IMG/VR virus record: IMGVR_UViG_3300033069_001185
Location: 1 to 64,000 of that record
Reading direction: 5' to 3' (one strand)
Source: a virus
Lineage: Duplodnaviria; Caudoviricetes
DNA length: 64,000 nt
Part shown: in pieces, positions 369-52,602 of the stretch
Layout: each line of letters begins with the position of its first letter
How positions within the stretch are numbered: position 1 is the stretch's first letter
Made by a program: the position numbers and the translations under genes
The notes under the pieces: generated by a model
Told to the model about the DNA's origin: nothing
Database searches by the model: none
What the model saw: only the letters and a program-made list of their open reading frames with translations

Positions 369-863
369 CTAAGTTTCGTATGCCAGATATGCGTAATCTA
401 GATAGGACTCATAGTTCAGATACACATCTAACTCGTATTTGTGTATATAAGATTTTTTCAGCACCCTGTCATTGTATGAATTGTCAATGTAAAAATCAGT
501 CCCTTCTCTATTTCTAAAGAAATGAATATTACATATTGTGGCGTTTTTGACATTGGCCGTGAGTAGATCTGAAAAAGATATGGCCATAGAATCTAAATTG
601 GCTTCTTCGAAGTTGGCACGGTCCAGAATCGTTCTATTGAAATATGCTGCCTTTAGGTTCGATCTTGTGAAATTCGCCTCAATCAATGTACAGTCATAGA
701 ATTCCACGTACCGAAGGTCCATACCAGAAAAATCAAATCCATCTAAGTATAGATCTCGGAAAACCGCCCTAGATCCGTCCATATTTCCATGTTCCATAAA
801 TTTTTTATGTCCATTTAACAGATCTGTAATCTGGTTCTTGGTGACATCGATGTAAGCTTTCAT
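369..863 (-). CDS. pentapeptide-repeat protein, family member 1
   Basis: ANFTRSNLKAA/ANFEEANL repeats; start moved to ATG 863 after GAGGAGG RBS. Confidence 0.8.
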   Translation of the reverse strand: MKAYIDVTKNQITDLLNGHKKFMEHGNMDGSRAVFRDLYLDGFDFSGMDLRYVEFYDCTLIEANFTRSNLKAAYFNRTILDRANFEEANLDSMAISFSDLLTANVKNATICNIHFFRNREGTDFYIDNSYNDRVLKKSYIHKYELDVYLNYESYLDYAYLAYET

Positions 864-917
864 TTTGAACCTCCTCTTCTTATAAGCCGCGCGCTGAATG
901 ATTTCACATGTCCACAA

Positions 918-1150
918 TTACAGGGCACGGTGTTGAGTGCGCACACGATCACGATCCCACCCGTGAGCACCACAGGGGGCAGTTGGCCGCGCGGGTGAGT
1001 TAGCGATCGCTTTCCGACTGCCTGATCTCTGCGGGAGCAATAAAACAAACACGACCCGCGATCACCACCACATAGAACCCCAGTGGTGTGATCCCTGTGA
1101 GAACCCCTGATCCTCTCGAAGTGCAGAGGATCAGGGGCAGGCAGGGCAGC
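918..1150. ncRNA. candidate structured non-coding RNA in GC-rich intergenic block
   Basis: 13-bp perfect hairpin 1104-1137, hairpins 1060-1093, 1031-1059, 958-997; closing helix 1018-1024/1138-1144. Confidence 0.4.
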
Positions 1151-1339
1151 TTACTTCGAGGCACTGGACACCTGCGCGAAGGTCCACACCTTGCCCGTCC
1201 CGTTGTCGTTCACTTCGTAAACACGTTCCGCCCAAGCGTAAGGCAGTTCTTTGCTGAAGTCGGGAACCACGGTGATTCCAATAATCGAGATTCCTTTGGC
1301 TGCGAGGGCTTTCAGGGTCTTGCGGTTGAAGTCGTTCAT
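1151..1339 (-). CDS. hypothetical protein (GC-rich, MNDFNRK...)
   Basis: GGAG RBS before ATG 1339. Confidence 0.7.
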   Translation of the reverse strand: MNDFNRKTLKALAAKGISIIGITVVPDFSKELPYAWAERVYEVNDNGTGKVWTFAQVSSASK

Positions 1340-1367
1340 GGTGTGTTCTCCGTGCTGCTTTGTATAC

Positions 1368-1574
1368 TTACCAGTTGTTCTCTCGGTCATTCTTGAGTTC
1401 TTCAAACTCAGCCATCCAGCGCTCCGTAGTCAGATCTGAAATACGGTTGGTATAGACCGAAGATTTGCACCAACGATCTGTTCCCGGACCGGCAAAATAT
1501 ACATACCCATTGCCTTGGACGATTTCGAAACCTTAGGGGAGCAGCTTGTTGATTTGCGATTTCGTTGATTTCAT
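1368..1574 (-). pseudogene. small early gene with in-frame TAA at codon 14
   Basis: MKSTKSQINKLLP*GFEIVQGNGYVYFAGPGTDRW...; ATG 7 nt after promoter -10. Confidence 0.6.
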
Positions 1575-1581
1575 AAACAGT

Positions 1582-1610
1582 CTTATATCAATACGACGCC
1601 CTACTGTCAA
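1582..1610 (-). promoter_or_regulatory. sigma70-type early promoter
   Basis: TTGACA-17-TATAAG. Confidence 0.8.
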
Positions 1611-1614
1611 GGAG

Positions 1615-1628
1615 TAATCTTCATATCA
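1615..1628 (+). promoter_or_regulatory. putative late promoter
   Basis: TAATCT-N6-CA before + strand operon. Confidence 0.75.
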
Positions 1629-1640
1629 AAGGGAGTCAAT

Positions 1641-1964
1641 ATGACTATATCAATAGAACCCAAAGACCTAGAAGCCCCTCCGACTAAAATCGGAATGCTA
1701 GAAAACCGTCCGGTATATCAAGCAAAAACGAAGGGCGGCTACCACCTTATCTTTACGCACAAGTCAGGCTCATCTGCCCCTGAGTTCTTGGCGGCTGGCA
1801 ATCACCGAGCCGTTGCTCGTCATGTTGCGGCTAAAAAGAATGAAAATCTTGTTTTTACTGAACTATCAAAGTCAGAGCATGTAAACATCGAACACTATTC
1901 GTATCTTATACCAGACTGTGAAGAACTTACAACCCGAATCCGAAAGTTGAATGGTGACGAGTAA
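1641..1964 (+). CDS. late hypothetical protein (LSKSE motif)
   Basis: RBS GGGAG; follows late promoter. Confidence 0.75.
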   Translation: MTISIEPKDLEAPPTKIGMLENRPVYQAKTKGGYHLIFTHKSGSSAPEFLAAGNHRAVARHVAAKKNENLVFTELSKSEHVNIEHYSYLIPDCEELTTRIRKLNGDE

Positions 1965-2806: not shown

Positions 2807-2812
2807 GTATTA

Positions 2813-3604
2813 TTACTTAATGATACCGGTTCGGTCAGAGTAGGTAAAGTTAGCGCCGCTTGAGGTTTTTACGTTTGTAAAATTCGCACGGCAGAGCTTT
2901 GCGTACTGGAAACTTGAACTGCCAGCGTCAGCACCTTCAAAGCAAGAATCTGACAGATCACTACCAGTGAAGCTTATTTCGATATGTGCGTTTGAGAAAT
3001 TTGCATGACGCAAGTCCTTGTTTTCGAAGATACCTTTCGTGTAATTTTTGTAACAGAGATTCATATCGCTAAAATCAGCCTGTTCGCCTTTTGAAGGACT
3101 CGCCAGCCATTCGTTATGAGATTTAAGGACTCTTTCGACTTCCTCTTCTGTGGGGGTATACAAACTTACTCCCGATATACCCTCCCACTCCTTGCCCAAG
3201 GACTTCATCTCTTCCATGAGTTTCAACACTTTTGGGTCTTCGTTGTAGCGTTTCCAGCTATCAATACAGTTTTGAGGGTTTGCACAAGCAAAACCATTTT
3301 CCTTTACGGTTTTTTGCCAGCTAACATCAGTCTGTAGTTTTTTCAAAAGAGAAACGTACTCCTCCGGAGAGGTAACTACTGTATTGATATCAATACCCAT
3401 AATCCTGCAATAATCTTCCACAGTCTCGCATTTATCGGCAGGAATATAGCCATCACCGAAGCACTTACAGGTTGCTCCGTGGGCTTTCCTCAATGCTTTG
3501 AATGTGTTGTGAATCCCGTCAATCCCAGCCTGAATATCCACGATCTCCTGTTGTGTTGCGAGGTACTTCTGTTTTTGCTCTTGCACCTTCTTTTTGTCGA
3601 TCAC
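2813..3604 (-). CDS. coiled-coil/Cys N-terminus fused to pentapeptide domain, member 2
   Basis: PTEEEVERVLKSHNEWL cap, ANFSNA/ANFTN repeats; GTG start after GAGGG. Confidence 0.75.
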   Translation of the reverse strand: MIDKKKVQEQKQKYLATQQEIVDIQAGIDGIHNTFKALRKAHGATCKCFGDGYIPADKCETVEDYCRIMGIDINTVVTSPEEYVSLLKKLQTDVSWQKTVKENGFACANPQNCIDSWKRYNEDPKVLKLMEEMKSLGKEWEGISGVSLYTPTEEEVERVLKSHNEWLASPSKGEQADFSDMNLCYKNYTKGIFENKDLRHANFSNAHIEISFTGSDLSDSCFEGADAGSSSFQYAKLCRANFTNVKTSSGANFTYSDRTGIIK

Positions 3605-3650
3605 GAAGTACCCTCGGCTGGTTGCATAGTAGCTATACCAAACTATAATG

Positions 3651-4052
3651 TTATTCGCAAGCCTTAACTGCGGCTGACATTTGCTCCAGAACACCGTCAC
3701 CGGCCACGAACGAGCATTCAAGGGCTTCTTGGATGGTAGTGACGTTCTCGCTAACACCGAACAGAGTGATCACTGCATAGCTACCGTGGCGGCTCTTGAA
3801 CAACATCACGGTAGGGGCTGAGTAGATTTCTGTAGTGTGAGTATCCCATTCACCATCCGAACCCATTCGGCACTCTTTGTGCTCCGAAACGACACAGCCA
3901 AAGGACCAGACTTCTCTATAGACGGTGTGCATCTCCGTGCCGCTGTTGAAGCGCACTTCAACCTTGTTGGGACGCTTGCCGGTCAGCTTAATCAGGTCTT
4001 GAAGATACTGGGGAAGCTCTTTGCGGGTGGTTTCGATAGTCTTGAAGTTCAT
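3651..4052 (-). CDS. hypothetical protein
   Basis: 133 aa, AAGGAG RBS. Confidence 0.7.
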   Translation of the reverse strand: MNFKTIETTRKELPQYLQDLIKLTGKRPNKVEVRFNSGTEMHTVYREVWSFGCVVSEHKECRMGSDGEWDTHTTEIYSAPTVMLFKSRHGSYAVITLFGVSENVTTIQEALECSFVAGDGVLEQMSAAVKACE

Positions 4053-4120
4053 TTGTTCTCCTTGGTTGGTTGGACCGCCGTAACCCTAGCCGCTTCCGAT
4101 TTGGTAAGTTTCATAAAGTC

Positions 4121-4149
4121 TTTATATCAAAGCAGAATGGCTACGTCAA
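4121..4149 (-). promoter_or_regulatory. sigma70-type early promoter
   Basis: TTGACG-17-TATAAA. Confidence 0.75.
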
Positions 4150-4153
4150 GTGC

Positions 4154-4167
4154 TAATCTTTTTGATA
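4154..4167 (+). promoter_or_regulatory. putative late promoter
   Basis: TAATCT-N6-TA. Confidence 0.75.
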
Positions 4168-4172
4168 ACTAT

Positions 4173-4943: not shown

Positions 4944-4945
4944 TC

Positions 4946-6181: not shown

Positions 6182-6192
6182 GATCGACCTCT

Positions 6193-6672: not shown

Positions 6673-6689
6673 TTTTTGATATAGTCCTT

Positions 6690-7160: not shown

Positions 7161-7236
7161 TTTGTGATCCTTTTAACGTGGTTTGTTTATAACGGTACAA
7201 TTCTTAGGTTTGCTTTTTCTTCTACAGAAAGCTCTT

Positions 7237-7467: not shown

Positions 7468-7497
7468 ATGAATCTCCTTTGGAACTGGTGTGTTGTG

Positions 7498-7526
7498 CTT
7501 ATACCAAAGGAACAGCCCGCTGACAA
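7498..7526 (-). promoter_or_regulatory. sigma70-type early promoter
   Basis: TTGTCA-17-TATAAG. Confidence 0.6.
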
Positions 7527-7530
7527 GTGC

Positions 7531-8831: not shown

Positions 8832-9046
8832 TCTGTAAGCCCTTTTTCAAGGGTATTTAGTCCATCCTCTTTGAGGTGGGCGATATTTTCCAGCAACTTA
8901 CCCTTTAGTTCTGCAATTTTCGCTTGCAAGAGTTTTTTTTGACTATCAATAGCGCAATCGACAAGCTCTTCCTTCAGTTCTAGGAACTGGACCAGATCGT
9001 TTGATAATTCATGGATTACAGCGGATTCAAATTCAAAGTTATTCAT
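8828..9046 (-). CDS. hypothetical coiled-coil protein
   Basis: translationally coupled ORF. Confidence 0.6.
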   Translation of the reverse strand: MNNFEFESAVIHELSNDLVQFLELKEELVDCAIDSQKKLLQAKIAELKGKLLENIAHLKEDGLNTLEKGLTE

Positions 9047-9230
9047 TTCCTTCCTCTTGTACCATGTCTAACAGGTTTTGGTAATCGTCTGCGTTCAGGT
9101 GGTAGTATGAACTATATAGTTCACTAGATATTTGTTTACTTATGTCGACCATCATCTTTGGGTTCAAATCTAACAGACCGTCTATTATGACAACCTTACT
9201 TGTGCATAAATCTTTAATATACGTATCCAT
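9039..9230 (-). CDS. small protein with LNADDY motif
   Basis: RBS AAGGA; shared motif. Confidence 0.6.
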   Translation of the reverse strand: MDTYIKDLCTSKVVIIDGLLDLNPKMMVDISKQISSELYSSYYHLNADDYQNLLDMVQEEGNE

Positions 9231-9238
9231 ACTTTCCT

Positions 9239-9321: not shown

Positions 9322-9330
9322 ATTCTCTTA

Positions 9331-10033: not shown

Positions 10034-10321
10034 TCAGCGATACCAAGCGGCATATTGTTGGCTCAGGAACTTGTCAAAGCTTTCGATGAGGGCTTCGTTC
10101 CAGCCACTGAAACGTGCAACACCCCACCTGAATCCAATTGAAATTCGCTCTCCGTCTTCGGCCTCAAACTGCCAATACCCAGTATAGCCCAAATCATATT
10201 CGTCAATGTTGATTGTGTGGCGACCAAACATTTCCTGCATTTGCTGCTCTGTAATTTTAATGGTGGGGTAGCCAAGAAAACAGCCGCCGAAGTCATGCTC
10301 TTTGGTTTTTGTGAAGTTCAT
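10034..10321 (-). CDS. hypothetical early protein, probably leaderless
   Basis: ATG 6 nt after -10. Confidence 0.7.
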   Translation of the reverse strand: MNFTKTKEHDFGGCFLGYPTIKITEQQMQEMFGRHTINIDEYDLGYTGYWQFEAEDGERISIGFRWGVARFSGWNEALIESFDKFLSQQYAAWYR

Positions 10322-18187: not shown

Positions 18188-18459
18188 CGGGAAAGCTTGA
18201 TCTTTTTCAATTCTTTTTTAAGCGCCCTAAGTCCCTTTAAAAGGGCTTTGAGCTTCTTCGTAAGCAAAGCGTCGGCGTTTTTAGTGGCTTGTGCGTCTTG
18301 GATAGCTTTTTTGTCAATCTTTTTATTGGTTTTTTTCATCGTTTTAGTGCTCCTAACTCCACAAATGCTGCCCTTGGGACTTTCGTAACAAGGAACCCCA
18401 TTAACATCAAAGTGACAGTTTCCTTCGTCGTCGTACCAGTTAGGCATTCGCGTCCTCAA
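18181..18459 (-). CDS. small basic protein
   Basis: ORF overlapping ligase end. Confidence 0.45.
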   Translation of the reverse strand: MRTRMPNWYDDEGNCHFDVNGVPCYESPKGSICGVRSTKTMKKTNKKIDKKAIQDAQATKNADALLTKKLKALLKGLRALKKELKKIKLSRK

Positions 18460-19549
18460 GTAGGTCTAACACAACTTCGGCACCGGAATCAAGAAGATAT
18501 TGCTTAATACTTTCTACTTTGCCAGCCCGCAGCTTGAACAAAGCGTCCGGACATTTGCTTAGCTTGGCCTGTTTGGCAAACTCTTTCTGTGCTTCTTTCT
18601 GATCCGCAATGTGGTCTACTTTGATAGATGCATAGTCTTCCGTAAGGTCTTTGACTAGGCTCTGAAACGAAGCCGTTGCTTCTTCGAACAGGACTTTCCA
18701 TTCCGGGAAGTAACTCAGCACCTCAGCACCTTCTCCGGTTAGCACAATCCCCATGATTTTCTTGGGAGTAGGTCCTTCGTTGCCCTTCAAATGGTGCAGC
18801 GAAACATAGTTTGGGTGCTTGATTTTGATACGATTGAACTGATCGTCGACTACGACATATCCTTCTGAATCAATTCCAGAGAAATTAGCAAACGTATTGA
18901 TAATTTCATCCAATGAGCCAAGTCCAAAGGTCTTGACCTTTTGATAGTTAGGATAATACAAGGACCGTACCGGCTCTTCTTTCTGGGTCAGATTGTTTCT
19001 GATCCCAATAAGCGTTAGCTGAGCCTTTCGGTACGGAACTACAATTCGGTTATAAGGAGAAGTCAGTTCAAAGATAAAGGTGAAGCCATTTTGGGAGATC
19101 ATGGGCAGTTCGTACCCCATGGATTTGTAGGTTTCCCAGAAAAGCTCTGCGAATGTTATCTCGAATCCATGGACATTCCCACCCGCATCTGGCGAGCCAT
19201 TAGAAGCAACACGCCATTCTCCTTTGTACCAATACATGGACATAATAGAGCCGTCCAGCTTTTCCTGCACTACAGCGCTTGTCCAGTCAATCTTGGCCGC
19301 ATTGGGCTCGTCGGCATTGAAGAACTTGGTGAAAGGGAACGACACCACTTTCCAAAAATCCGATTCATCCAAGATCAGGCCGCGACATTCTCTAACAATC
19401 GGAGAAGTCATATCGGCATTGATTTGATTGTACTTTAACATTACCAGATTGTTAAACTGGGAATGCCGACGTACATCAATGCCGTAGGTATCGGGCAACT
19501 CTTGAAGAGTGATTTCTTTGTTAAGCAGTTTCTGTTGGATCTTTAGCAT
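18440..19549 (-). CDS. RNA ligase, T4 Rnl1-like
   Basis: ECRGLI, PF.KFFN, motif I EKLDGS, FEL, EGYVV, KIK. Confidence 0.92.
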   Translation of the reverse strand: MLKIQQKLLNKEITLQELPDTYGIDVRRHSQFNNLVMLKYNQINADMTSPIVRECRGLILDESDFWKVVSFPFTKFFNADEPNAAKIDWTSAVVQEKLDGSIMSMYWYKGEWRVASNGSPDAGGNVHGFEITFAELFWETYKSMGYELPMISQNGFTFIFELTSPYNRIVVPYRKAQLTLIGIRNNLTQKEEPVRSLYYPNYQKVKTFGLGSLDEIINTFANFSGIDSEGYVVVDDQFNRIKIKHPNYVSLHHLKGNEGPTPKKIMGIVLTGEGAEVLSYFPEWKVLFEEATASFQSLVKDLTEDYASIKVDHIADQKEAQKEFAKQAKLSKCPDALFKLRAGKVESIKQYLLDSGAEVVLDLLEDANA

Positions 19550-19553
19550 AAAA

Positions 19554-19677
19554 TTAGTTCTGGTCTTGGCTCAGGAGGTACTTCAGATAGTCGTCTATAT
19601 TGATAGTAATGCCTCCTCCTTTATAAAGCGTGGCTCTCCATCATGCGTTCGATTCGTTCTGGTGTAGGTTTTTTCAT
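19554..19677 (-). pseudogene. pentapeptide-family gene with entire repeat core deleted
   Basis: MKKPTPERIERMMESHAL* joined out of frame to ...GITINIDDYLKYLLSQDQN*. Confidence 0.7.
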
Positions 19678-20141
19678 TTTGTTACTCCGAAAAGCCTGAA
19701 GTAATCGTCTATGTTTAAGGAGTACGACATCTTAGATTTGACGGTGTTCATTTTGTATAGAGTGATTTCGGGGGCATCTTGGGCATAGCTACACAGAAAA
19801 ACTTTTGCGATGCTTGTCTCATAGACGGTCGTTTGGTCGAAAAGCGCATCTAAAAATGAACCATCGAAGCCTTCAACTAAACGGAAATCTGCATACTCAA
19901 AAGTCGCATCTTTTAGCAGACATTTTTCAAACCGGCAACTATCAAGTCTCGAATCCTCAAAATTTGCGTTTGTTAAGTCGCAGTTAACAAAGTCTGCTCC
20001 GCTCAGGTCAAGAAATGACAGGGTTCTTGAACCTAGATCCATATTGGAAAACTCAGCACGTTTTCCTTTGCTTTTCCCGATGACCCAATTTTCATGGTCT
20101 TTGACGATTTTTGCTATCTCTTTTTTAGTAGGTCTAAACAT
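19674..20141 (-). CDS. pentapeptide-repeat protein, member 3
   Basis: RPTKKEI..H..W cap, ADFVNCDLTNANF, LNIDDY tail. Confidence 0.8.
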   Translation of the reverse strand: MFRPTKKEIAKIVKDHENWVIGKSKGKRAEFSNMDLGSRTLSFLDLSGADFVNCDLTNANFEDSRLDSCRFEKCLLKDATFEYADFRLVEGFDGSFLDALFDQTTVYETSIAKVFLCSYAQDAPEITLYKMNTVKSKMSYSLNIDDYFRLFGVTK

Positions 20142-22721: not shown

Positions 22722-22793
22722 TTGGCCCACCAAGAGTTGAACTTGGATCTAGCACTTATAAGGTGCTGGCTCTAACCGTTGAGCTATAGGCCG
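22722..22793 (-). tRNA. tRNA-Ile(TAT), no encoded CCA
   Basis: AGCAC-CT TAT AA-GTGCT; C1:A72 mismatch. Confidence 0.85.
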
Positions 22794-23044
22794 GGAGCTA
22801 CAAACAAACTACTTTTTCTAAAGTACTCAAATGTATCAGAATTACAAACAACACGGTTATATACAAATCGGAGTGCGCCGTCAAATGTATAATACTCTGT
22901 AGCTAAAGCTTTTTGATATCCAAGATAGTAGTCGTCCAGCTTGAAACTAACAATCCCGTCCGGAAAGGTCTCGTTAAGATAAAAGCTGATATATCCGTTG
23001 TCAGTCAAAATCACTTCCAGAAGGGAATCTTCCAGAACACGCAA
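22784..23044 (-). CDS. small protein with VCNSDTF motif
   Basis: ORF in operon; start uncertain. Confidence 0.5.
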   Translation of the reverse strand: MRVLEDSLLEVILTDNGYISFYLNETFPDGIVSFKLDDYYLGYQKALATEYYTFDGALRFVYNRVVCNSDTFEYFRKSSLFVAPGL

Positions 23045-23559: not shown

Positions 23560-23841
23560 TTATTTGATTGGGTGGAGAGTAACAGTATAGTCACAAGACT
23601 CGTAAAGTTCTACTACTTTTTGTAAAGTATCTGCGTTCATTACACAAACAGTATCGTCATTGTTTACTTCATAGCTTTGGAGCTTCAAAAAGAGTGCATC
23701 GTAGTTTATTTCAATGTTTATGGCGTATGCATTTCGGACAGTATCGTCAGACATGTAATTAGATATAAGCGCCGTAAAGGCGCTTATGGCCTGAGCATTC
23801 TCGTCTTTATTGTTAACAACGCCAAAAATATAGTCGGACAT
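23560..23841 (-). CDS. small protein, paralog of 23849-24175
   Basis: VMNADTLQKVVELY...Y.V.LH. Confidence 0.6.
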   Translation of the reverse strand: MSDYIFGVVNNKDENAQAISAFTALISNYMSDDTVRNAYAINIEINYDALFLKLQSYEVNNDDTVCVMNADTLQKVVELYESCDYTVTLHPIK

Positions 23842-23848: not shown

Positions 23849-24175
23849 TTAAAACAGTTTTAGCGATTGATGCAATATCACTTCATAACCTTGGTTTTGG
23901 ATAAACTCGATTATTGAACCCAGAGTGTCTTCAGACAAGACCGCCGTGTAGTTACCAAACAGCCAATCGTCCTCGACTTTTCCGGTTGCAATTTTGATAA
24001 GCTCGTACCTTACAGACTCTTCAAAAACAATCTCCGTACCTTGAGTAAGGGTCACCTTGTTGTCTTCAATCGAATTGTTAATTTTGAATTTAAATAAGGA
24101 TAGCTGCCAACTAGGCTTACCTACGATTTTGATATGCAAATTGCCAATCTCGGCAGATATTGTTACTTTGTCCAT
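23849..24175 (-). CDS. small protein, paralog of 23560-23841
   Basis: VLSEDTLGSIIEFI...Y.V.LH. Confidence 0.6.
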   Translation of the reverse strand: MDKVTISAEIGNLHIKIVGKPSWQLSLFKFKINNSIEDNKVTLTQGTEIVFEESVRYELIKIATGKVEDDWLFGNYTAVLSEDTLGSIIEFIQNQGYEVILHQSLKLF

Positions 24176-24594
24176 ATTGATATAAATGAGCCGCCGACAA
24201 TCCTTTTGGCAAACGTGTTTAAGCTAATATACGGTTTTTGTAAAGCAGGATCTGCGATATAGACTCTTGAACCGGAAAACCCTCTTACCACAATCCAGTG
24301 GTCTGAATCAACATAACAAATCAGTATTCGGTTTTTCTTGGACTGGGACTTCATGGCACGCAATGTGCAGAAAGTTTCTGAAAACACCTTGGTCGTAAGT
24401 CCGTATACATTTAGCGTAGCTACTATGTCTTTTTGATATGTGCCTGAATTCCTGTCTGTATTGAGCAGCTCAGACATAACAGGCCTATGAGACTTGTCTA
24501 TACCAAACAGTTCTGCTATCATATAGACACAGCATCTGCCGCAGCTATAGTCGTCGTTTTGATATATAAACTTAAAGTTTTTGATAAAGTCCAT
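24163..24594 (-). CDS. C39-like cysteine peptidase
   Basis: Q....SCG..C, HWIVV, IADPA. Confidence 0.8.
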   Translation of the reverse strand: MDFIKNFKFIYQNDDYSCGRCCVYMIAELFGIDKSHRPVMSELLNTDRNSGTYQKDIVATLNVYGLTTKVFSETFCTLRAMKSQSKKNRILICYVDSDHWIVVRGFSGSRVYIADPALQKPYISLNTFAKRIVGGSFISIWTK

Positions 24595-24645
24595 GAGCAA
24601 GACAGATAATAACACAAAACTTAGTCTTAGAGAAATGACGTATTA

Positions 24646-25167
24646 ATGTATAAGCCAACACAGATCGAAATAGATAAGATGATGGAGGCCCATTCTGTTT
24701 GGCTGTCTAGTGCTCCCAATGCAGGCAAACAGGCTAATTTTAGCAATATGGATTTGGAAGGCATCAGCCTTGAGGGTCGGAACTTGTCGTTGGCGATACT
24801 TTCCGGGACTAAATTTGCTGGGTCAAATCTTCGAGACGCCTCACTTTGCAATTCTATGTTGAGTAAAAAAACCAATTTTGTCGGCGCAAATCTAGAACAG
24901 ACACACATCAGCAGTATGAATCTATCGCACTGCTCTTTCGATCCGGTCGGGCTTTCCAAAGCCCTGTACCTCTACAACGTAACTGTTGCTATTCGAGGTC
25001 GCAATTTTCTGAGGTTATTCACCCATACGCCGGATCTAACTACAGAAGAGGTCTTGGAGATAACGAAGCCACAGCCACAGACCACAATATTAAGATACCA
25101 CAACTTAATAGATATCAATCCAGACCAGTTTCTAGATTTGGTAGAAAGTGGGCTTTTTAGCCCCTAA
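24646..25167 (+). CDS. pentapeptide-repeat protein, member 4 (opposite orientation)
   Basis: MYKPTQIEI..H..WL..GKQANFSNMDL. Confidence 0.8.
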   Translation: MYKPTQIEIDKMMEAHSVWLSSAPNAGKQANFSNMDLEGISLEGRNLSLAILSGTKFAGSNLRDASLCNSMLSKKTNFVGANLEQTHISSMNLSHCSFDPVGLSKALYLYNVTVAIRGRNFLRLFTHTPDLTTEEVLEITKPQPQTTILRYHNLIDINPDQFLDLVESGLFSP

Positions 25168-25835: not shown

Positions 25836-26537
25836 ATGCGGATTTCTACTCTTTTCGTGCTGGTTGCGTTCACATTCAACTGCACTCACGCCGCACAGGC
25901 CCAATCCTTTTCAAGCTCCGGGCTTAGAATGGACGTTTCGAAGGAAACCGGCATCCTACCTTCACCTACAAATCACTATGTGCCGAAGATCGCGTTTGAG
26001 GCCGAGGTCGATTCAGACACAGTGGACCAAGCCATCACACTAATCAAAGCTTTGGGCGAACAAAAGGCAGAAGCCATCATTATTGAATGGAACTCTCCGG
26101 GGGGCTCAGTGGAAGACGGCTTCCGCCTAGCCAAGGCAATCGAAAACAGTCCAGTACCAGTTATTTGCGTAGTCGACGGAACTGCCGCTTCGATGGCAGC
26201 TTATCTGCAACAGTCGTGCCATGTTCGCATTATGACCAAACGGTCGACTTTAATGATTCACGAACCAGCCATGGGCGGAAGATTCAGCGGTCAACAAACC
26301 GAATGGCGCTCTATTGTTGACTGGCTTGCTGCAATGACCAAAGCGATGGTTGAGCACATGTGCCGTCGCACTAAGATCTCCCCAGCAGATATGGAAGATA
26401 AAATCCGTGGTGGCAGTATGTGGTGGTTAGCTTGGGGCGAAGCCAAGTCTCTGGGCCTCGTGGATGTAGTAGTGGACTCAGTTTCCGATGTTACTTCATC
26501 GTACAGAAACGATCTGCAAGCGCCTGCAAGCCTTTAA
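25836..26537 (+). CDS. ClpP-like (S14) protease with signal peptide
   Basis: NSPGGSV, AASMA, MIHEP, EA..LGLVD; N-terminal hydrophobic ...AQA. Confidence 0.85.
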   Translation: MRISTLFVLVAFTFNCTHAAQAQSFSSSGLRMDVSKETGILPSPTNHYVPKIAFEAEVDSDTVDQAITLIKALGEQKAEAIIIEWNSPGGSVEDGFRLAKAIENSPVPVICVVDGTAASMAAYLQQSCHVRIMTKRSTLMIHEPAMGGRFSGQQTEWRSIVDWLAAMTKAMVEHMCRRTKISPADMEDKIRGGSMWWLAWGEAKSLGLVDVVVDSVSDVTSSYRNDLQAPASL

Positions 26538-26791
26538 GGCTCAAGGATTACCAGCTTTAGTTCGTATTCGAAGTAATTACGAGCGCCTTTACGATTCCAA
26601 TAGTCTACGTAACGGTAGGCGTCGTCGATATTCATGGTCCCTGCTAGGTAGGGAATCGATTCTGGGTCTCGATCTTCAGTCGAGTTTACGATTGACGCTC
26701 GGCCTGTTTTTAAAGGTAGTTCTGATCGGCCCGCTTTTTCTATATAATACCCTTCAGCAGTTACTATCATTTCAAGCACCTTAGCTTTCAT
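26534..26791 (-). CDS. N-x-D/YxY family small protein
   Basis: MNIDDAYRYVDYW. Confidence 0.65.
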   Translation of the reverse strand: MKAKVLEMIVTAEGYYIEKAGRSELPLKTGRASIVNSTEDRDPESIPYLAGTMNIDDAYRYVDYWNRKGARNYFEYELKLVILEP

Positions 26792-27009
26792 GTGAAATCA
26801 ACCCAGATTTCAACCTCTTCGTGGGTTCTTTCGTATTGCACAGTCCAGTATGAAATGTATTGATATATAACATCTGTATTACAATATACGTTTATAAATC
26901 CGAGACTTTCGTCGATCTTTGAATCGTCGATTATTCCGCCCGGCCAACTTTCTTTGCTTGCTTTTCCATCTATTCTGGCTTTGATTTTGTACTTTGACAG
27001 AAGCTTCAT
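26788..27009 (-). CDS. N-x-D/YxY family small protein
   Basis: CNTDVIYQYISYW. Confidence 0.65.
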   Translation of the reverse strand: MKLLSKYKIKARIDGKASKESWPGGIIDDSKIDESLGFINVYCNTDVIYQYISYWTVQYERTHEEVEIWVDFT

Positions 27010-27158
27010 AGCTCGGTAATGTCTGTAATCTTAAGATTTTTGGGAATCTTGACTCCGTTCATCTTGGCAAATGCTTTGATGATGTAAATCAAGGCCGATT
27101 CGAAGAAGAAATTATCGCGGCCTTCCCATTCAATCTTAACAATCTTAGTTTGTTTCAT
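27006..27158 (-). CDS. 50-aa protein, duplicate of 28011-28163
   Basis: MKQTKIVKIEWEG...PKNLKI.DITEL. Confidence 0.7.
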   Translation of the reverse strand: MKQTKIVKIEWEGRDNFFFESALIYIIKAFAKMNGVKIPKNLKITDITEL

Positions 27159-27160: not shown

Positions 27161-27490
27161 TTAGAACCCTAGAGCGATACAGCTTGGACATCCATTGTGA
27201 TGGTAATGTAGCGGGTCTTTTTCGGGACAATCTCTTACACCGCATTGGCTGCACTCAAGTTTTGCGGAAGAGTGGCCGCACGGTCTTTGTATATATGCTC
27301 TTAATCCGGCAGTCAATGCTTCCTGCTCTAATTTAAGGAGGTTATCTATGTTGCATCTAGCAACAATCATTACTTCGGCAAGAACCAAGTCTTTTAATTT
27401 ATCAAAAGACCCTATATCATCAAGATAGTTATCAACATAAAACCTACTAACAGTTTTCTGGACCACAAGCCCATAAATGATTTCATTCAT
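27161..27490 (-). CDS. small protein with CNIDNL motif and C-terminal Zn finger
   Basis: CSQCG..DCP...HYH..GCPSC. Confidence 0.6.
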   Translation of the reverse strand: MNEIIYGLVVQKTVSRFYVDNYLDDIGSFDKLKDLVLAEVMIVARCNIDNLLKLEQEALTAGLRAYIQRPCGHSSAKLECSQCGVRDCPEKDPLHYHHNGCPSCIALGF

Positions 27491-27702
27491 GGAATGAGCC
27501 TGATCGTAATCTGATGCGGAATTATGTGGTTTTCCCAATAGTCCTGATACCTATAGAGCTGATCTGAATTACAGGCAGTTCCCATGCATCCAAAATTTTC
27601 CCAATCGGGCAAGCAATCCTCGATTTCGACTTCGAACGAATCGAAAGGCTTCCAAGTACTCAGATATAAACCTAGATATACACCTTCAATACGGGCTTTC
27701 AT
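27487..27702 (-). CDS. N-x-D/YxY family small protein
   Basis: CNSDQLYRYQDYW. Confidence 0.65.
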   Translation of the reverse strand: MKARIEGVYLGLYLSTWKPFDSFEVEIEDCLPDWENFGCMGTACNSDQLYRYQDYWENHIIPHQITIRLIP

Positions 27703-27926
27703 CGGCTGTCTAATTCAAAGAAAATTTCATACAAAGGCCATTGCTGTTTAAGCCAGTCCATGTATTGATATATATAGTCAGTATTGACTGTAGTCGGCCC
27801 GAGGCTTTTCTCTCGAAAAGGATCTTTGTCCAAAACGTCGTCGCTAACACCAAAAACATACTGGGCCTCTCCAACATCGGATATCCCGTTTAATGTCCAG
27901 TGCGCGACGATCCTAATTCTTTTCAT
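27699..27926 (-). CDS. N-x-D/YxY family small protein
   Basis: VNTDYIYQYMDW. Confidence 0.65.
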   Translation of the reverse strand: MKRIRIVAHWTLNGISDVGEAQYVFGVSDDVLDKDPFREKSLGPTTVNTDYIYQYMDWLKQQWPLYEIFFELDSR

Positions 27927-28010: not shown

Positions 28011-28163
28011 TCATAGTTCGGTGATGTCTATTATCTTCAGATTTTTAGGTTGCTTGACACCATTCAGTTTCGAAAAGGTTTTGATAATATATCTCAAAAC
28101 GCTTTCGAAGAAAAGATAATCGTTTCCTTCCCATTCTATTTTAACAATCTTGGTCTGTTTCAT
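28011..28163 (-). CDS. 50-aa protein, duplicate of 27006-27158
   Basis: identical first 13 residues and similar C-terminus. Confidence 0.7.
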   Translation of the reverse strand: MKQTKIVKIEWEGNDYLFFESVLRYIIKTFSKLNGVKQPKNLKIIDITEL

Positions 28164-28204
28164 GTTTAATTTTATCGAGGGTAGAAAAAAATACCAAGCC
28201 TCTT

Positions 28205-29329
28205 TCATTTGCCAAAACCGATCACTGCCGTCTTCTTTGGTTTAACTCCCGTTACTACCTCTGTTTTTTCCTTAGATAGCAGATAAACTTCGGCAAGGGT
28301 ATAGCTCTTTGAAGGCTCGGGTAGTTTTTGTCCGGGGCATAGCCGATCCAACACAGCCTGTGACTGTTCCGGAGACAGTCCAACGACTTCCATATGGGCA
28401 GATAGACGACCGGGACGCATGAGCGCTTTATCAATGTCCATGAATGTCGCATTCGTGGTTGCAACGATACGAATGTCAAGCAGACTGCCCAAAATACCGT
28501 CGCAAAGATTCAGTACGGTCGAAATAGCAGACATATTGCCGTTTTCACGGTTGACCAAAGTCTCGTCGGCATCTTCAATGATAAAGACCAAAGGCATTTT
28601 TGCTCCTTTGTCCCTTCTGAGGCCGATCATGGTGGGAATGACCTCGGGATTGGTCAGTTGCTGAATCATTGCGGCTGGGATTACGCAGAAAATGGCATTT
28701 TGGGTTTGACTCAGCAGGCCTTTGATCAGGAAAGTTTTCCCAGTACCAGCCGGACCGTTAATGATTGATAGTCTGCCGGTAGGATTGGCAGAACCCAAGT
28801 CCCTTACGATTTTTTTATAGCCTTCAATCACTTCTGGGGAGTAATTCTCTGCAATGATTTTTTGACCAGAAAGACCCATGGGGGTGAAACTCAGGCCACT
28901 GTCTGAGGCTGTCAGAACATAAACAGTTCCAGTGGGAGGTACGGTTCCCAACGAATCCATTATCTTGTTTACTTCTTCGCTGAAATTTTTATCAATAGAT
29001 GCAAACCGAATCGCAATATCACGCCAAGCAGAAACCTGTACATAGCCTCCGTCGAGTGCCCAAGAAGCACCGTCCTTCCTAAGCTCAATAGCCCTGCCTC
29101 CATACTTTTCCACCAGTTCTTGGACCCGGCTGCACGTCTCTGTAAAGTCCGCAATGCCTTCTTTTCTTCCGCTCATTACGGGTCCTGAGTTGCCCATCAC
29201 GGCATCGTAAGTAAGGGAAAGTTCTGCCCAATTAAGATCAACGGTGCTGTCAGTCTGCCCAAACGGGAGTTGTTTAATATGCTTTGCCCAAGAAACTGCC
29301 TTCAGGTCCTTCGGATCTGGGGTACTCAT
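28205..29329 (-). CDS. AAA+ ATPase
   Basis: GPAGTGKT, IIEDAD, LN..DG, TTN, D.AL.RPGRL. Confidence 0.9.
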   Translation of the reverse strand: MSTPDPKDLKAVSWAKHIKQLPFGQTDSTVDLNWAELSLTYDAVMGNSGPVMSGRKEGIADFTETCSRVQELVEKYGGRAIELRKDGASWALDGGYVQVSAWRDIAIRFASIDKNFSEEVNKIMDSLGTVPPTGTVYVLTASDSGLSFTPMGLSGQKIIAENYSPEVIEGYKKIVRDLGSANPTGRLSIINGPAGTGKTFLIKGLLSQTQNAIFCVIPAAMIQQLTNPEVIPTMIGLRRDKGAKMPLVFIIEDADETLVNRENGNMSAISTVLNLCDGILGSLLDIRIVATTNATFMDIDKALMRPGRLSAHMEVVGLSPEQSQAVLDRLCPGQKLPEPSKSYTLAEVYLLSKEKTEVVTGVKPKKTAVIGFGK

Positions 29330-30183: not shown

Positions 30184-30425
30184 GGAATCCGTTCCTTGGA
30201 AGCTAGCAAAAAGTTGAGGGCAAGGTCGATTGTGGGTCCGCCCTTGACCAAGGTAAGCTTGCCATTGATATCGGAAGTATGGATACCAACTGCGTGCTCT
30301 CCGTTCCGTGGATCGCCAACCAAAATGCGGACCGGCTGGCCTACTAGCTGTTCGGCAATCTTTCGGGCTTGGGTTTTCGAGTTAGTGACAAGGGGCTTGT
30401 GCGTTGCTTTGACTGAAGAGTTCAT
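30180..30425 (-). CDS. hypothetical protein
   Basis: AAGGA RBS, coupled. Confidence 0.55.
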   Translation of the reverse strand: MNSSVKATHKPLVTNSKTQARKIAEQLVGQPVRILVGDPRNGEHAVGIHTSDINGKLTLVKGGPTIDLALNFLLASKERIP

Positions 30426-31144
30426 TTCGTTCCTTTGTTTGGTGTGGTTTTCCATACTACGTTGTGATTTGGAGCTGGTATGTATATGTAGCCGCTGGTA
30501 ACTGTTGTGACTGGTTCGCTTATTGCTAGTTTTGGCGGTCGATTTTCGTTAGTAATAGATCGGCAAAGGTTACGCCAGAATTCACCCTGCCGCTCCTCGC
30601 AAAGCTCATATCCTTTGCTGTAATACTTCAGGATGCGCTCAAAACTCATCTTACTTAGGTTTCGATAGTGGCAAAACCGTAGCTGCTTTTTGGAAATATC
30701 GTTTTCTGTAAATTCATCGTAATGTAAAAAATATTTGTCGTTTTGTTTTGTTACAGCAGTCCTGCAACAAGCAAAGTCAAATTGACTAAGAACTGAATTG
30801 ACGCCTTCGATGCTTTTATTGTAAATGATCTGAATCGGTGTGGTATCGCCACTGAATGTCTTGACAAATCCCTCGCCAAGTTGTCTTGGGTGACCGGGTT
30901 TTAACCCCATATATTCAGCAATATAGCTGACTTCACGTACTTGTTCTTCATTGTTACAATACACATCAATATCATTAAAACAATGATACTTGTCAAAATA
31001 CTGAATACACGATCCTCCAGCAATAATGGTATTTGGAACCTCTAGCAATGCTTTATGGGCATAGCTGACATTATCAAATTGGCAGTATTTAAACGTCAGA
31101 TCTTTGTTTGTTTCGAACGATAGCAGTTGATATTTTTCACTCAT
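30422..31144 (-). CDS. nucleotidyltransferase (CCA-adding/poly(A) polymerase head-like)
   Basis: IAGG...DIDVY, FDF, R..KY..KGY. Confidence 0.75.
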   Translation of the reverse strand: MSEKYQLLSFETNKDLTFKYCQFDNVSYAHKALLEVPNTIIAGGSCIQYFDKYHCFNDIDVYCNNEEQVREVSYIAEYMGLKPGHPRQLGEGFVKTFSGDTTPIQIIYNKSIEGVNSVLSQFDFACCRTAVTKQNDKYFLHYDEFTENDISKKQLRFCHYRNLSKMSFERILKYYSKGYELCEERQGEFWRNLCRSITNENRPPKLAISEPVTTVTSGYIYIPAPNHNVVWKTTPNKGTK

Positions 31145-31641
31145 CTCACCAACCTCAAATAATCTTCGAAATTAACTTCGATGTGGCTTTTCAAACCATC
31201 CAAACTGTCGATTGTAATGTTTGGTTGATCGTCTGCTGAGCTGGTGATTGCTACCCAACGGCCTGATTTAGTTTGGTAAGCCCATGTTCGGTTGAACTTT
31301 GCATTTTCAAAGTTTGCACCAGTCAGGTATGCATTTTCAAGGTTTGCATTAGTCAGGTTTGCACCAGTCAGGTTTGCATCAGTCAGTTTTGCACCAGTCA
31401 GGTATGCATTTTCAAGGTTTGCATTAGTCAGGTTTGCACCAGTCAGGTTTGCATAAGACAGTTTTGCATAAGTCAGTTTTGCATGAGTCAGGTATGCACC
31501 AGACAGTTTTGCTCTAGATATGTTTGCACCAGTCAGATCCATATTGCTAAAAACAGCCTGTTTGCCTTTCTTTGGATCTTTCAACCATTCAGCATGGTTT
31601 TTGATGATCTCGTTGATTTCAGTTTGAGTTGGTTTGTGCAT
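31141..31641 (-). CDS. pentapeptide-repeat protein, member 5
   Basis: regular A[NKY]L[TE]x repeats; VNFEDY tail. Confidence 0.92.
   Translation of the reverse strand: MHKPTQTEINEIIKNHAEWLKDPKKGKQAVFSNMDLTGANISRAKLSGAYLTHAKLTYAKLSYANLTGANLTNANLENAYLTGAKLTDANLTGANLTNANLENAYLTGANFENAKFNRTWAYQTKSGRWVAITSSADDQPNITIDSLDGLKSHIEVNFEDYLRLVR
31295..31540. repeat. 15-bp tandem repeat encoding pentapeptides
   Basis: units like GCACCAGTCAGGTTT / GCATTAGTCAGGTTT. Confidence 0.85.
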
Positions 31642-31648: not shown

Positions 31649-32113
31649 TTATAGCAAACTGCGAATCTTCATTTTGCGCAACCTACGTTTATCACGTTTG
31701 GTGGTCTTTGGACCAGAATACTGCTCTTTCGCTCTTTTTGCCAACTTGTCGGCAATTTCGTTCAAGAGATCTCCGTTGTGGCCCCGAACCCAACGGCTTT
31801 TGGCTCTGGCAATCTTGAACAGTTGCTTGATTTCTGCTGCTAGCTCTAGGTTTTTGTTGGGGGTAAACTGACCAGAAGCCATTCCCAAAGCGTATTGGCT
31901 ATCCGAAACCAATTCGACTTCGACATCTTTTCTATCAATAACGGCCTTCAGCCCTTCAATGCATGCCGTAAGTTCTGCGATATTGTTAGTACCGATAGGA
32001 GCACCTCCGGAACCAGTAGCGATAATGAGACCGTTCTCCACCAGAATGTAGGCCCAGCCAATCGCTCCAGAAGAGCTGCCGTCGGAGCTACCATCTGCGT
32101 AAATCGAAATCAA
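31649..32113 (-). CDS. rnhA: ribonuclease HI
   Basis: YADGS, TNN.AEL, SDSQY, WVRGH, NE.AD.LA. Confidence 0.93.
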   Translation of the reverse strand: MISIYADGSSDGSSSGAIGWAYILVENGLIIATGSGGAPIGTNNIAELTACIEGLKAVIDRKDVEVELVSDSQYALGMASGQFTPNKNLELAAEIKQLFKIARAKSRWVRGHNGDLLNEIADKLAKRAKEQYSGPKTTKRDKRRLRKMKIRSLL

Positions 32114-32777: not shown

Positions 32778-32807
32778 AGACTATCAATATCTACTGACTC
32801 CTGTCAA
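32778..32807 (-). promoter_or_regulatory. sigma70-type early promoter
   Basis: TTGACA-18-TAGTCT with TG. Confidence 0.6.
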
Positions 32808-32874
32808 CCTGAAAAGATCGTCGAGGTTCAAATACACTTCTCACCTACGGCTTCTTTGGTGGTTAGCTTCTTCA

Positions 32875-33612
32875 TTAGATATCGACAAGGACTCTTTTCC
32901 AGAAGTCTTTGTTCTCATTTTCCCGTTTGTAGCCCATTGGGTTTGCTAGAACATGTGTGCCAGCATTGTCATAGTCACAGGCCGTATGGGTATGGCCATG
33001 GAGCCAGTTCTTCGGATGCTCGGTCATGCTTGTTGCACAGTTGTCATAGAAAAAACAATTCAAATTGCTTCCACGGTGCTTTGGAGCAACGCTTTTGATA
33101 AACGGAAGATGATGGCTGATTACTGTAGTCTCCGGAGTGATCTTAGGCAATAGGTCCTTCTTGAATCTTTCGTTCAATCGATAGGCAGTGGTTTGAATAT
33201 CGTCCACATGGATATAATCGGTAAATCGAGTCAGCCAGTACAGTTCGGTGTCGGGCCGAGGAAACCACAACGTACCTCCAAGAAAATGTTTGCCTTGGAC
33301 TGTTTTTTCTGTATTGTTAAGTAAATGTACGTTTTTATAACCTATTGATTCAAATGTTTTGGTCGCCAGTTCGATGCTAGTAGCATAGGATTCATGGTTG
33401 CCGAACACATATAAAACGTCTTTGTACATACCAGCAAACCGATCCATTTGCTTCTTGGCTCGTACTTGATGTTCGGCAGACCAGTTAGTAATGTCACCAG
33501 CAAGTACCAGCAAATCAACCTTTGGTTGGTGACCTAGCTTATAGAAAAACTGATCAACATCTTCGTTTAATAGGTGTTCGAAGTGCAAGTCACTACATAG
33601 ATGGATTTTCAT
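32875..33612 (-). CDS. calcineurin-like metallophosphoesterase
   Basis: SDLH, AGDI, GNHE, HHLP, HGHTH. Confidence 0.92.
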   Translation of the reverse strand: MKIHLCSDLHFEHLLNEDVDQFFYKLGHQPKVDLLVLAGDITNWSAEHQVRAKKQMDRFAGMYKDVLYVFGNHESYATSIELATKTFESIGYKNVHLLNNTEKTVQGKHFLGGTLWFPRPDTELYWLTRFTDYIHVDDIQTTAYRLNERFKKDLLPKITPETTVISHHLPFIKSVAPKHRGSNLNCFFYDNCATSMTEHPKNWLHGHTHTACDYDNAGTHVLANPMGYKRENENKDFWKRVLVDI

Positions 33613-49061: not shown

Positions 49062-49067
49062 AATCAA

Positions 49068-51503: not shown

Positions 51504-52096
51504 TGATAATTTTTCAAGGCTTATTTCCACTAACTGACGATTCCGGCTCAGATCTGGTTGTCACTTCTGTGACTGCCAGTCCGGGCAATGTTGTTGTTGT
51601 GTTTAGTCACGCAATAACATTAACTGGCGCCTCTATCGTGTTTAGCAATTGGGTCATTAGCGGTGGAGTCTCTCCTCCTGCCGTTCTTAATGTTAGTCTG
51701 GTTGGCAATGTAGTAACAATAACTACGCCAGAAGATATTCTTGGGCAAACAAGAACGTTAACCGTACCTAACGGTATTGTTAAGTTTTCTGATGGTGCCC
51801 AAACCCTGCAAGCACCTTTCAGCTTCAATTTCCCAAGCTCGGGCGTCACTCCGATCGTAACTGGTATTGTTAACAGAGATGCCAAGACCATTGAGGTTAT
51901 TTTCAGCGAACCTGTGGTTGAATCAGAAGCCTTGAACATAGCTAACTACAGCATCTCGCCGTCTTTGGCCATAAGATCTGCCTCAAAAGTCCAAGACAAC
52001 CGTTACAGATTGGATTTGCTTCAGTTCCAAACGCCAGCAATAGAATACACGCTGACTGCGACTAATATTCACGATCTTGCTGGTAATGTTATTTAA
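51503..52096 (+). CDS. tandem Ig-like virion protein
   Basis: V.FS..V, NYSI, YTL...NI.DLAGN. Confidence 0.65.
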   Translation: MIIFQGLFPLTDDSGSDLVVTSVTASPGNVVVVFSHAITLTGASIVFSNWVISGGVSPPAVLNVSLVGNVVTITTPEDILGQTRTLTVPNGIVKFSDGAQTLQAPFSFNFPSSGVTPIVTGIVNRDAKTIEVIFSEPVVESEALNIANYSISPSLAIRSASKVQDNRYRLDLLQFQTPAIEYTLTATNIHDLAGNVI

Positions 52097-52222
52097 AACC
52101 TGCTTTCCAGACGAGGCCAACCCAACAATCGCATCCGAAGTCCGAAGAAGTGCTTGCTGTCCGTACTTCCCGCTAGAACTTAGCCAGCGATAGTTATCGT
52201 CAAGCTTAGATCTTACGCCCAT
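52096..52222 (-). pseudogene. truncated pentapeptide-family remnant
   Basis: LDDNYRWLSSSGKYGQQA resembles family N-cap MDDHDLWLESKGTLGKRA. Confidence 0.45.
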
Positions 52223-52602
52223 TTTTTCTCCAGAAGCTCTTGATAGTCATCCATATTCAACGTCAATCCTGAACGCCAGATAGGAGGAGTTAGTGATGGA
52301 ACGTCAGGGGCATCTGTGTCCAGTCTCCAGCCCATATTACCTAATACTCGTATGGAGCATTCTTTAAAATATGCATCGACGAAAGCGGTTGATTGCCAAG
52401 TGACGCTCGCAAAATGACAACCATGGAAAACGGTGTTCTTTAACACAGCGTTTGGTCGAAAGACCGCTAACTTAAAGTTTTGGTTTTGAAATACCTGATC
52501 GGCCAGCATAGAGCCTTCAACAATGAGCCTTTGGCCTTTGGTGCTGTCTGTTAGCCACAATACGTGGTTACGCAACATGTAGGGAATGTTATAATTTGAC
52601 AT
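52213..52602 (-). CDS. pentapeptide-repeat protein, member 6
   Basis: H.LWL...KG.R cap; LNMDDY tail. Confidence 0.7.
   Translation of the reverse strand: MSNYNIPYMLRNHVLWLTDSTKGQRLIVEGSMLADQVFQNQNFKLAVFRPNAVLKNTVFHGCHFASVTWQSTAFVDAYFKECSIRVLGNMGWRLDTDAPDVPSLTPPIWRSGLTLNMDDYQELLEKKWA

Follow-up and report, generated by a model that had tools for sequence, protein, structure and literature searches.

A recurring strand-Asn-x-Asp-Asp-helix motif marks the C-terminal domain of an expanded pentapeptide-repeat protein family in a phage genome

Why do some 15 small proteins encoded in one stretch of phage DNA carry the same short strand-Asn-x-Asp-helix motif, and does this motif join different proteins to a common partner? 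The stretch analyzed here, hereafter the window, comprises positions 1 to 64,000 of the virus record IMGVR_UViG_3300033069_001185 (Duplodnaviria; Caudoviricetes), the first half of a 128,385-bp single-contig record that is linear according to IMG/VR and 79% complete according to CheckV. A preliminary description of the open reading frames (ORFs) had read the motif as a docking or oligomerization tag attaching varied cargo to one partner, with the caveat that N-x-D is also a generic helix N-cap, and all 15 of the peptides it quoted were recovered in the respective ORFs at their positions. Our analysis indicates that the motif, in its core form strand-Asn-x-Asp-Asp-helix (hereafter the tag), marks one gene family, that of pentapeptide-repeat proteins (PRPs), and is not a tag on many different cargoes. 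Proteins are referred to below by the first coordinate of their ORF, those above 64,000 lying outside the window.

A six-frame search of the 128-kb genome with the pattern [LIVMA]N[LIVMFAP][DE][DNQ][YFWCMLA]xx[LFWYV][LFWYV], i.e., h-N-h-[DE]-[DNQ]-aromatic-x-x-h-h with h denoting a hydrophobic residue, returned 15 matches compared to 0.08 in mononucleotide shuffles, and in 14 of the 15 the motif lies 11 to 19 residues ahead of the stop codon. This pattern was written with the data already in view and was cross-validated with a leave-one-out position-specific scoring matrix (PSSM), which ranked the tag above all other sites in 11 of the 12 members (5 to 28 bits). The codons of conserved residues differ synonymously between copies (AAT/AAC, GAT/GAC, TTA/CTG/TTG, and AGG/CGA), indicating that the motif is selected at the level of protein rather than DNA. 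The shared strand-Asn-x-Asp-helix module of the preliminary description and its selection at the protein level are thereby borne out, and the comparison of the proteome with shuffled controls that it had suggested places the core motif far above chance. It is hardly conceivable that the motif is instead a translated repeated DNA element such as a promoter, terminator, or recombination site; the recurrence at gene 3' ends is the only point in favor of this, while synonymous positions differ freely with the amino acids kept, and one copy is found on the opposite strand with its reading sense unchanged. A DNA-level repeat was rejected on the basis of this variation at synonymous sites between copies.

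Conservation is not confined to the tag. An alignment of the last 60 residues (A1) places the motif at the end of a C-terminal domain of 55 to 60 residues, in which the conserved blocks are a hairpin, a D-x-P turn, a strand that follows a variable linker, and the N-x-D-D helix. Family proteins are built of an N-terminal helix (M-x-[KR]-P-T-x-x-E-I ... H-x-x-W), a varying number of repeats, and this C-terminal domain. The A1 profile matches 19674, 24646, 31141, 52213, and 9039 in the window, and 70500, 70909, 74206, 75964, 76359, 82442, 82692, and 127765 outside it. AlphaFold2, run on 19674 with an alignment of its paralogs, returned a model with a predicted local distance difference test score (pLDDT) of 87.8 and a predicted template modeling score (pTM) of 0.81, in which an N-terminal helix (residues 6–20) is followed by a solenoid, a hairpin (104–108 and 112–116), a short helix (128–132), and, at the C-terminal end, a strand (138–142), Asn143, and a terminal amphipathic helix (144–151). 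The PRP body is predicted to form a right-handed quadrilateral beta-helix, and the tag is modeled as strand and helix, with a mean pLDDT of 84 to 87 over residues 131–150, not as a disordered exposed peptide. An Asn at the N-cap with acidic residues at N2 and N3 is a classical helix-capping arrangement, and the aromatic-x-x-h-h pattern gives the terminal helix a broad hydrophobic face. A duplication of the tag within the domain, akin to the pair found in dockerins, was considered and rejected, the second-best PSSM sites reaching no more than 3.6 bits.

Foldseek and VIA matches cover the beta-helix, a search of PHROGs gave no match for ten of the small proteins, and a sequence-profile search of the PDB returned nothing significant, the best match being the exiting half of the MICU3 EF-hand (ELNFEDFYRFMDNL, E 0.17). 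This last match, for all that it is not significant, raises a calcium-binding EF-hand or dockerin-like half-site as an explanation. The spacing h-N-x-x-D-aromatic-x-x-h-h equals positions 8 to 17 of the EF-hand loop, with Asp at position 12 in dockerins, and the tag resembles the exiting half of an EF-hand or dockerin F-hand in its short strand, Asn/Asp N-cap, acidic residue at +3, aromatic residue, and hydrophobics. It differs from them in lacking the metal-ligand positions 1, 3, and 5, which fall upstream of the Asn on non-acidic residues, and Gly6 (K-S-K-M-S-Y-S in 19674 and G-L-K-S-H-I-E in 31141); no EF-hand or dockerin Pfam family matched at E<=0.1, and we regard a metal-binding half-site as very improbable. 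Equally far-fetched is a C-terminal sorting or turnover signal, whether for capsid packaging or as a degron for the ClpP/NfeD-like protease encoded by the phage at 25836–26537. The tag does stand consistently 11 to 19 residues from the C-terminus, and the ClpP-family gene adjoins one PRP gene as well as a cluster of four small paralogs termed fam2; against this, the tag is predicted to be folded (pLDDT ~85) rather than disordered.

All-against-all BLASTP groups 369, 2813 (C-terminal third only), 19674, 24646, 31141, 52213, and 52609 in the window with 70500, 70909, 75964, 76359, and a copy running off the contig end at 127765. All of these exceed the Pfam cut-off of 20.2 bits, as does a pseudogene piece at 74351, except for 52213 and 70909, which are tied to the family by BLASTP (E 1.9e-8 and 8e-11, respectively). 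Altogether the 128-kb contig holds ~18 family loci, namely 13 PRP-type loci (9 intact with the domain, 1 with a degenerate tag, 2 without the domain, and 1 frameshifted pseudogene at 74206–74450), 3 stand-alone domain proteins, and 2 short remnants. The stand-alone proteins 9039, 82442, and 82692 align over the entire domain, as does the 38-amino acid ORF 74206, which represents the C-terminal end of a frameshifted PRP: immediately upstream, a different frame encodes pentapeptide repeats, and relatives have an intact 126-amino acid gene (P0010). A hidden Markov model (HMM) trained on PRPs only ranked 74206, 82692, the remnant at 19557, 9039, and 82442 above every noise ORF of the six-frame set (E 1.7e-8, 1.3e-4, 0.02, 0.049, and 0.082, respectively).

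Within the window, four PRPs carry the domain, three of them on the minus strand. The complete domain of 19674 (19674–20141, minus strand; tag LNIDDYFRLF at 19689–19718) was found by the domain HMM at E 7e-22, with 46.4 bits to Pfam PF00805 for the protein; corresponding values are 5e-10 and 42.7 bits for 24646 (24646–25167, plus strand; tag INPDQFLDLV at 25114–25143) and 2e-23 and 104 bits for 31141 (31141–31641, minus strand; tag VNFEDYLRLV at 31147–31176). The fourth, 52213 (52213–52602, minus strand; tag LNMDDYQELL at 52231–52260), is a diverged PRP that scores below cut-off with the Pfam pentapeptide models and was identified by BLASTP to 76359 (E 1.9e-8) and by the domain HMM (E 2.5e-19). 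It stands in tandem with 52609 (52609–52962, minus strand), a paralog with no recognizable tag (PF00805 22.8 bits; BLASTP to 2813, E 8e-5), the two lying between tail genes on the opposite strand; a promoter and terminator scan around 52213–52962 gave nothing exceeding shuffles. In 2813 (2813–3757, minus strand; 314 amino acids), the C-terminal third (residues 199–314) is a family PRP (BLASTP to 31141, E 3e-16; PF00805 26.5 bits) in which the N-terminal helix motif is present and the C-terminal domain is missing. The paralog 369 (369–917, minus strand; PF00805 47.6 bits; BLASTP to 19674, E 5e-8) has a degenerate tag, YLNYESYLDY at 393–422; it is not scored by the domain HMM (E 16) and aligns with the family over its full length (A3), with its Asn in the invariant column.

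Reduced forms accompany these genes. The stand-alone domain 9039 (9039–9230, minus strand; 63 amino acids; tag LNADDYQNLL at 9069–9098) aligns with the whole domain and scores 13.8 bits with the leave-one-out PSSM; an ESM Atlas look-up of this protein returned unnamed or unrelated rows only. At 19557–19677 (minus strand), three-frame translation revealed an internally deleted and frameshifted PRP remnant (domain HMM E 1.5e-4), of which the 18 N-terminal codons (MKKPTPERIERMMESHAL, followed by a stop) reproduce the family N-terminal helix motif and the last 28 codons, in another frame, encode INIDDYL followed by 12 residues. The ATG of the remnant and the stop codon of PRP gene 19674 overlap (ATGA); taken with the N-terminal motif and the frameshifted tail, this identifies the remnant as a tandem paralog that has lost its repeats. 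An intergenic remnant of 18 codons at 32787–32840 (minus strand; EVYLNLDDLFRLTGVSRY), recognized by translation, derives from a lost family member; the possibility that it is a read-through extension of the metallophosphatase gene was rejected, the remnant being in a different frame and in an intergenic gap.

We subsequently asked how widely the domain is distributed. Among 1.84 billion representative proteins, the domain profile had 15 matches, of which 12 are true (63 to 173 amino acids) and all derive from this phage or near-identical relatives, the remainder being three unrelated repeat proteins. In the 12 true matches the domain is always on a PRP body or alone and never on another body. 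More distant relatives, identified by their tail sheath and including an 82%-complete contig of 135 kb, have neither the domain nor a PRP, in searches that gave 14 and 20 matches in the window's own genome. As far as these profile searches reach, the domain occurs in this phage lineage only, and the literature searched contains no description of it. These results bear on the proposal that varied cargo is attached to one docking tag, which they do not support: the sole attached body is the pentapeptide-repeat beta-helix, and the module is the end of a folded domain. In a wider form, the proposal would have a portable docking tag tie diverse effector bodies to one common phage or host partner, comparable to the F-box/PRANC ends of poxvirus ankyrin proteins or to dockerins. 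The tag has indeed been conserved while the PRP bodies diverged to 20–35% identity, stand-alone domains exist, a looser form of the motif is overrepresented among small, seemingly unrelated proteins of the accessory cluster, with borderline tag matches in fam2, and giant-virus PRPs fused to an F-box or U-box show that such architectures occur in viruses. We nevertheless consider a portable tag unlikely given that a PRP is the only body ever attached, that the tag is predicted with confidence to be folded into a domain and not to be a free peptide, that four of the eight proposed non-PRP carriers give no profile signal, and that no candidate partner was identified.

Based on the data presented above, we think it probable, with some reservation, that the motif represents the best-conserved part of a C-terminal domain that is specific to this lineage and belongs to a multigene PRP family, and that this domain acts as a solenoid cap and dimerization module. 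In such an arrangement, the Asn would cap the N-terminus of the last helix, with the two acidic residues at N2 and N3 forming a capping box, and the aromatic-x-x-h-h face would bury this helix on the small sheet and the open solenoid end; the domain would close off the solenoid at its C-terminal end. The domain would probably also mediate homo- or hetero-dimerization, by analogy with Qnr/MfpA-type PRPs, and the variable surfaces of the beta-helices would then recognize different targets, probably those of the host. Stand-alone domains may be deletion derivatives able to pair with full-length members, and either decay products or competitors for pairing; deletion remnants and pseudogenes are common in the family. 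A docking or oligomerization role is plausible.

The closest known systems are the PRPs of the Qnr/MfpA/AlbG type, topoisomerase-protecting DNA mimics with which the phage proteins have in common PF00805 repeats, a predicted right-handed quadrilateral beta-helix, small size, and the presence of a C-terminal helix, which in Qnr/MfpA/AlbG forms the dimer interface. Qnr/MfpA-type PRPs form a tail-to-tail dimer through their C-terminal helices (PMC10886550). Unlike in those proteins, the C-terminus here is an alpha/beta domain of 55–60 amino acids with its own conserved motif and no sequence match to them, there are ~13 paralogous loci in one phage, and the charges are not clearly DNA-like. Several of these points weigh against a solenoid cap and dimerization module. 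Dimerization is drawn by analogy only, and the domain exceeds the single C-terminal helix of Qnr/MfpA in size and does not resemble it in sequence. The net charge of the paralogs ranges from -8 to +2 (pI 4.4 to 8.7), which does not clearly fit DNA mimicry, and frequent pseudogenization could reflect relaxed selection instead of an arms race. Moreover, the enrichment of a loose N-x-D pattern in small non-family proteins hints at a wider superfamily than a single PRP family would allow, as do several weak in-register BLAST matches across families (27699 with 82692, E 0.021, and 22784 with 82692, E 0.049, in a 14-sequence database).

Comparison with near-identical relatives provided a view of how the family evolves. 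Four contigs from other samples share ~97–100% protein identity with this phage over most genes, yet differ at the PRP/domain-family loci and at those of fam2 and fam3, a pair of small paralogs described below. In one relative contig, 75964 is deleted and 76359 frameshifted, and in two, 82442 is doubly frameshifted. The near-identical 154.9-kb relative L003 lacks 31141, and it either lacks the fam2 members 27487 and 27699, as well as the fam3 pair, or has other genes in their place. PRP 24646 is 100% identical in L003 and in a further relative, L005. In an ortholog of 19674 with 66% identity, the N-terminal helix, hairpin, and tag are kept and the linker between them is scrambled. Turnover of these genes is thus rapid and involves tandem duplication, expansion of the repeats, internal deletion, and frameshift. 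At the 31141 locus, an RNase H gene in L003 is followed directly by a gene of the Pfam Gad2 family (L003:6428-7656), and in the window (30422–31641) PRP 31141 intervenes; the downstream 240-amino acid gene 30422 is only 48% identical to the L003 Gad2-family protein, and the 30422–31641 segment looks like a swapped accessory or counter-defense cassette. At the contig end, the PRP at 127765–128385 comprises >200 amino acids of near-perfect pentapeptide repeats, its ortholog in a relative (P0008) having 121 amino acids, and this repeat array probably caused the assembly break.

Other PRPs and repeat-protein families place these features in perspective. The PRPs of Twort (ORF044), Listeria A511-like phages, and Staphylococcus Kayvirus align with the N-terminal helix and repeats at 25–36% identity; those phages carry one or two PRP copies, and no tblastn match reaches the tag (query residues 142–151). 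Small cyanobacterial and plant thylakoid PRPs (NP275/276, alr5209, Rfr32, and At2g44920) are cellular proteins with ~20% identity to the phage PRPs, and neither the hairpin nor the N-x-D-D motif is present in their C-terminal caps. The poxvirus ankyrin-PRANC/F-box and giant-virus PRP-F-box/U-box proteins are alike in combining a variable repeat body with a conserved terminal module and in forming an expanded multigene family with rapid turnover, and BFVD matches include PRPs with a U-box or F-box along with many phage PRPs; this likeness is an analogy only, there being no sequence or fold relation between the F-box or U-box and the phage domain. PRPs themselves are already common in phages, and what is new here is the expansion to ~18 loci, the private domain, and the strain-level turnover, with gain, loss, and decay of genes, which are unusual together. 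Such a pattern of gain, loss, and decay is typical of genes engaged with host defenses or other host targets, and the conserved domain offers a handle for finding the family's binding targets, the stand-alone domains being small, tractable structural targets.

The remaining carriers named in the preliminary description are eight small proteins without pentapeptide repeats at 22.7–27.9 kb. Its claim that about 15 proteins share the module stands for seven (19674, 24646, 31141, 52213, the 19557 remnant, 9039, and, in diverged form, 369). The domain HMM detected none of the eight, i.e., 22784, 23560, 23849, 26534, 26788, 27161, 27487, and 27699 (E 0.7 or worse); the four fam2 proteins are borderline, and 22784, 23560, 23849, and 27161 fail every profile test, so that for these last four a relation at the quoted sites is not supported by any positive evidence. 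When the loose pattern [LIVMC]N.D.{1,2}[LIVFYM] was counted, it occurred 2.64 times per 1000 amino acids in small non-family proteins compared to 0.35–0.45 in proteins of >130 amino acids, which is the shuffle level, and 8.8 times per 1000 residues in the cluster at 22.7–28.2 kb. The quoted sites of 22784, 23560, 23849, and 27161 score at background; because the loose pattern is enriched in small non-family proteins, the generic N-cap caveat does not fully account for the cluster.

It is quite possible, if not quite probable, that the N-x-D matches at 22.7–27.9 kb are unrelated helix N-caps recurring through paralogy (four paralogs and one pair). No significant domain HMM or hhalign link was found (hhalign probability against the domain of 1.4% for fam2 and 0.3% for fam3), collapsing paralogs leaves ~5 independent occurrences, the pattern was defined post hoc, and the fam2 model is of low confidence. 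Against unrelated N-caps stand the 6-fold higher frequency of the pattern in small non-family proteins than in larger ones and the PSSM trained on the family only, which puts 26534 (15.1 bits), 27699 (10.9 bits), and 10034 (9.5 bits) above all 32,849 windows from larger proteins, none of which reaches 8 bits. The best non-family matches in the proteome for a tag-only HMM were likewise 27699 (E 0.034) and 26534 (E 0.06). The third protein, a 95-amino acid ORF at 10034–10321 outside the preliminary list, has INIDEY in mid-protein and is the third-best non-family PSSM match.

The four paralogs of fam2 constitute a separate small family, all on the minus strand: 26534–26791 (MNIDDAYRYV), 26788–27009 (CNTDVIYQYI), 27487–27702 (CNSDQLYRYQ), and 27699–27926 (VNTDYIYQYM). 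Their alignment (A2) has N, D, Y, and Y invariant, and a D-x-D-P turn lies upstream of the motif. Structure prediction, advanced earlier as a check of the shared module, succeeded for 19674, with a confident strand and helix, and was poor for fam2 (pLDDT 58), the fam2 model having the same order of elements as the domain. The chances that fam2 is a distant derivative of the PRP C-terminal domain are about even. Small ORFs at 27006–27158 and 28011–28208 are 80% identical over 50 residues (BLASTP E 1e-20), a local duplication flanking the fam2 cluster. The fam3 pair comprises 23560–23841 (minus strand; MNADTL) and its paralog 23849–24175 (minus strand; LSEDTL; BLASTP E 0.014 between the two), and gave no HMM or PSSM signal for the module. 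In L003 this locus has different alleles, a 96-amino acid protein with MNEDTF and a 98-amino acid protein with IGSDQL, and the 98-amino acid allele is similar to the C-terminal part of the fam2 member 27487 (E 0.022, 14-sequence database), a hint that fam2 and fam3 may be related to each other.

Were fam2 and fam3 to belong with the PRPs, the domain might be a phage-private pairing or docking module joining beta-helix binders, stand-alone 'mini' forms, and the 23.5–27.9 kb families in one combinatorial system. We regard this as a decidedly speculative idea; if true, the proteins would act as heterodimers or clients of one partner in host takeover or counter-defense, and the system would be a bacterial-virus counterpart of the poxvirus ankyrin-F-box families. 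The last two of the eight proteins are an 86-amino acid ORF and a non-member. In the former (22784–23044, minus strand; tag HMM E 0.58), the CNSDTF site scores at background, and another site, KLDDYYLGY (22916–22942), is weakly tag-like (PSSM 5.8 bits). The 3' end of this ORF overlaps tRNA-Ile(TAT) (22722–22793) by 10 nucleotides, with tRNA-Tyr 6 nucleotides beyond, and gene calling in the 154.9-kb relative extends this frame to 117 amino acids. The non-member, 27161–27490 (minus strand), is translated as a 109-amino acid protein (internal ATG) with a Cys/His-rich C-terminus and CNIDNLL in mid-protein, and gave no HMM or PSSM signal.

The genome encodes myovirus structural proteins, including a tail sheath, a baseplate wedge, and fiber-like proteins, and its sole match in the phage collection is to the tail sheath of Myxococcus phage Mx1 (48% identity). 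The G+C content is 43–49%, and there are four tRNA genes. Pentapeptide-repeat genes are mentioned for Microcystis Fukuivirus genomes (PMC12542629); nblA was not found in the 128-kb, 79%-complete contig. The accessory cluster around the PRPs includes genes for a T4-type RNA ligase (18440–19549), a C39-family peptidase (24163–24615), the ClpP/NfeD-like protease (25836–26537), RNase H (31649–32113), and a calcineurin-like phosphoesterase (32875–33612). Near both contig ends, and each beside a PRP, lie small paralogous ORFs with 65% identity (1151–1405 and, outside the window, 127464–127664), which may represent a duplicated block or a diverged terminal region. A 197-residue segment with 61% identity is common to a 1477-amino acid fiber-like protein (52987–57420, residues 985–1180) and a 309-amino acid protein (69253–70182), the latter with a Laminin_G_3 match in a relative, which suggests exchangeable receptor-binding modules.

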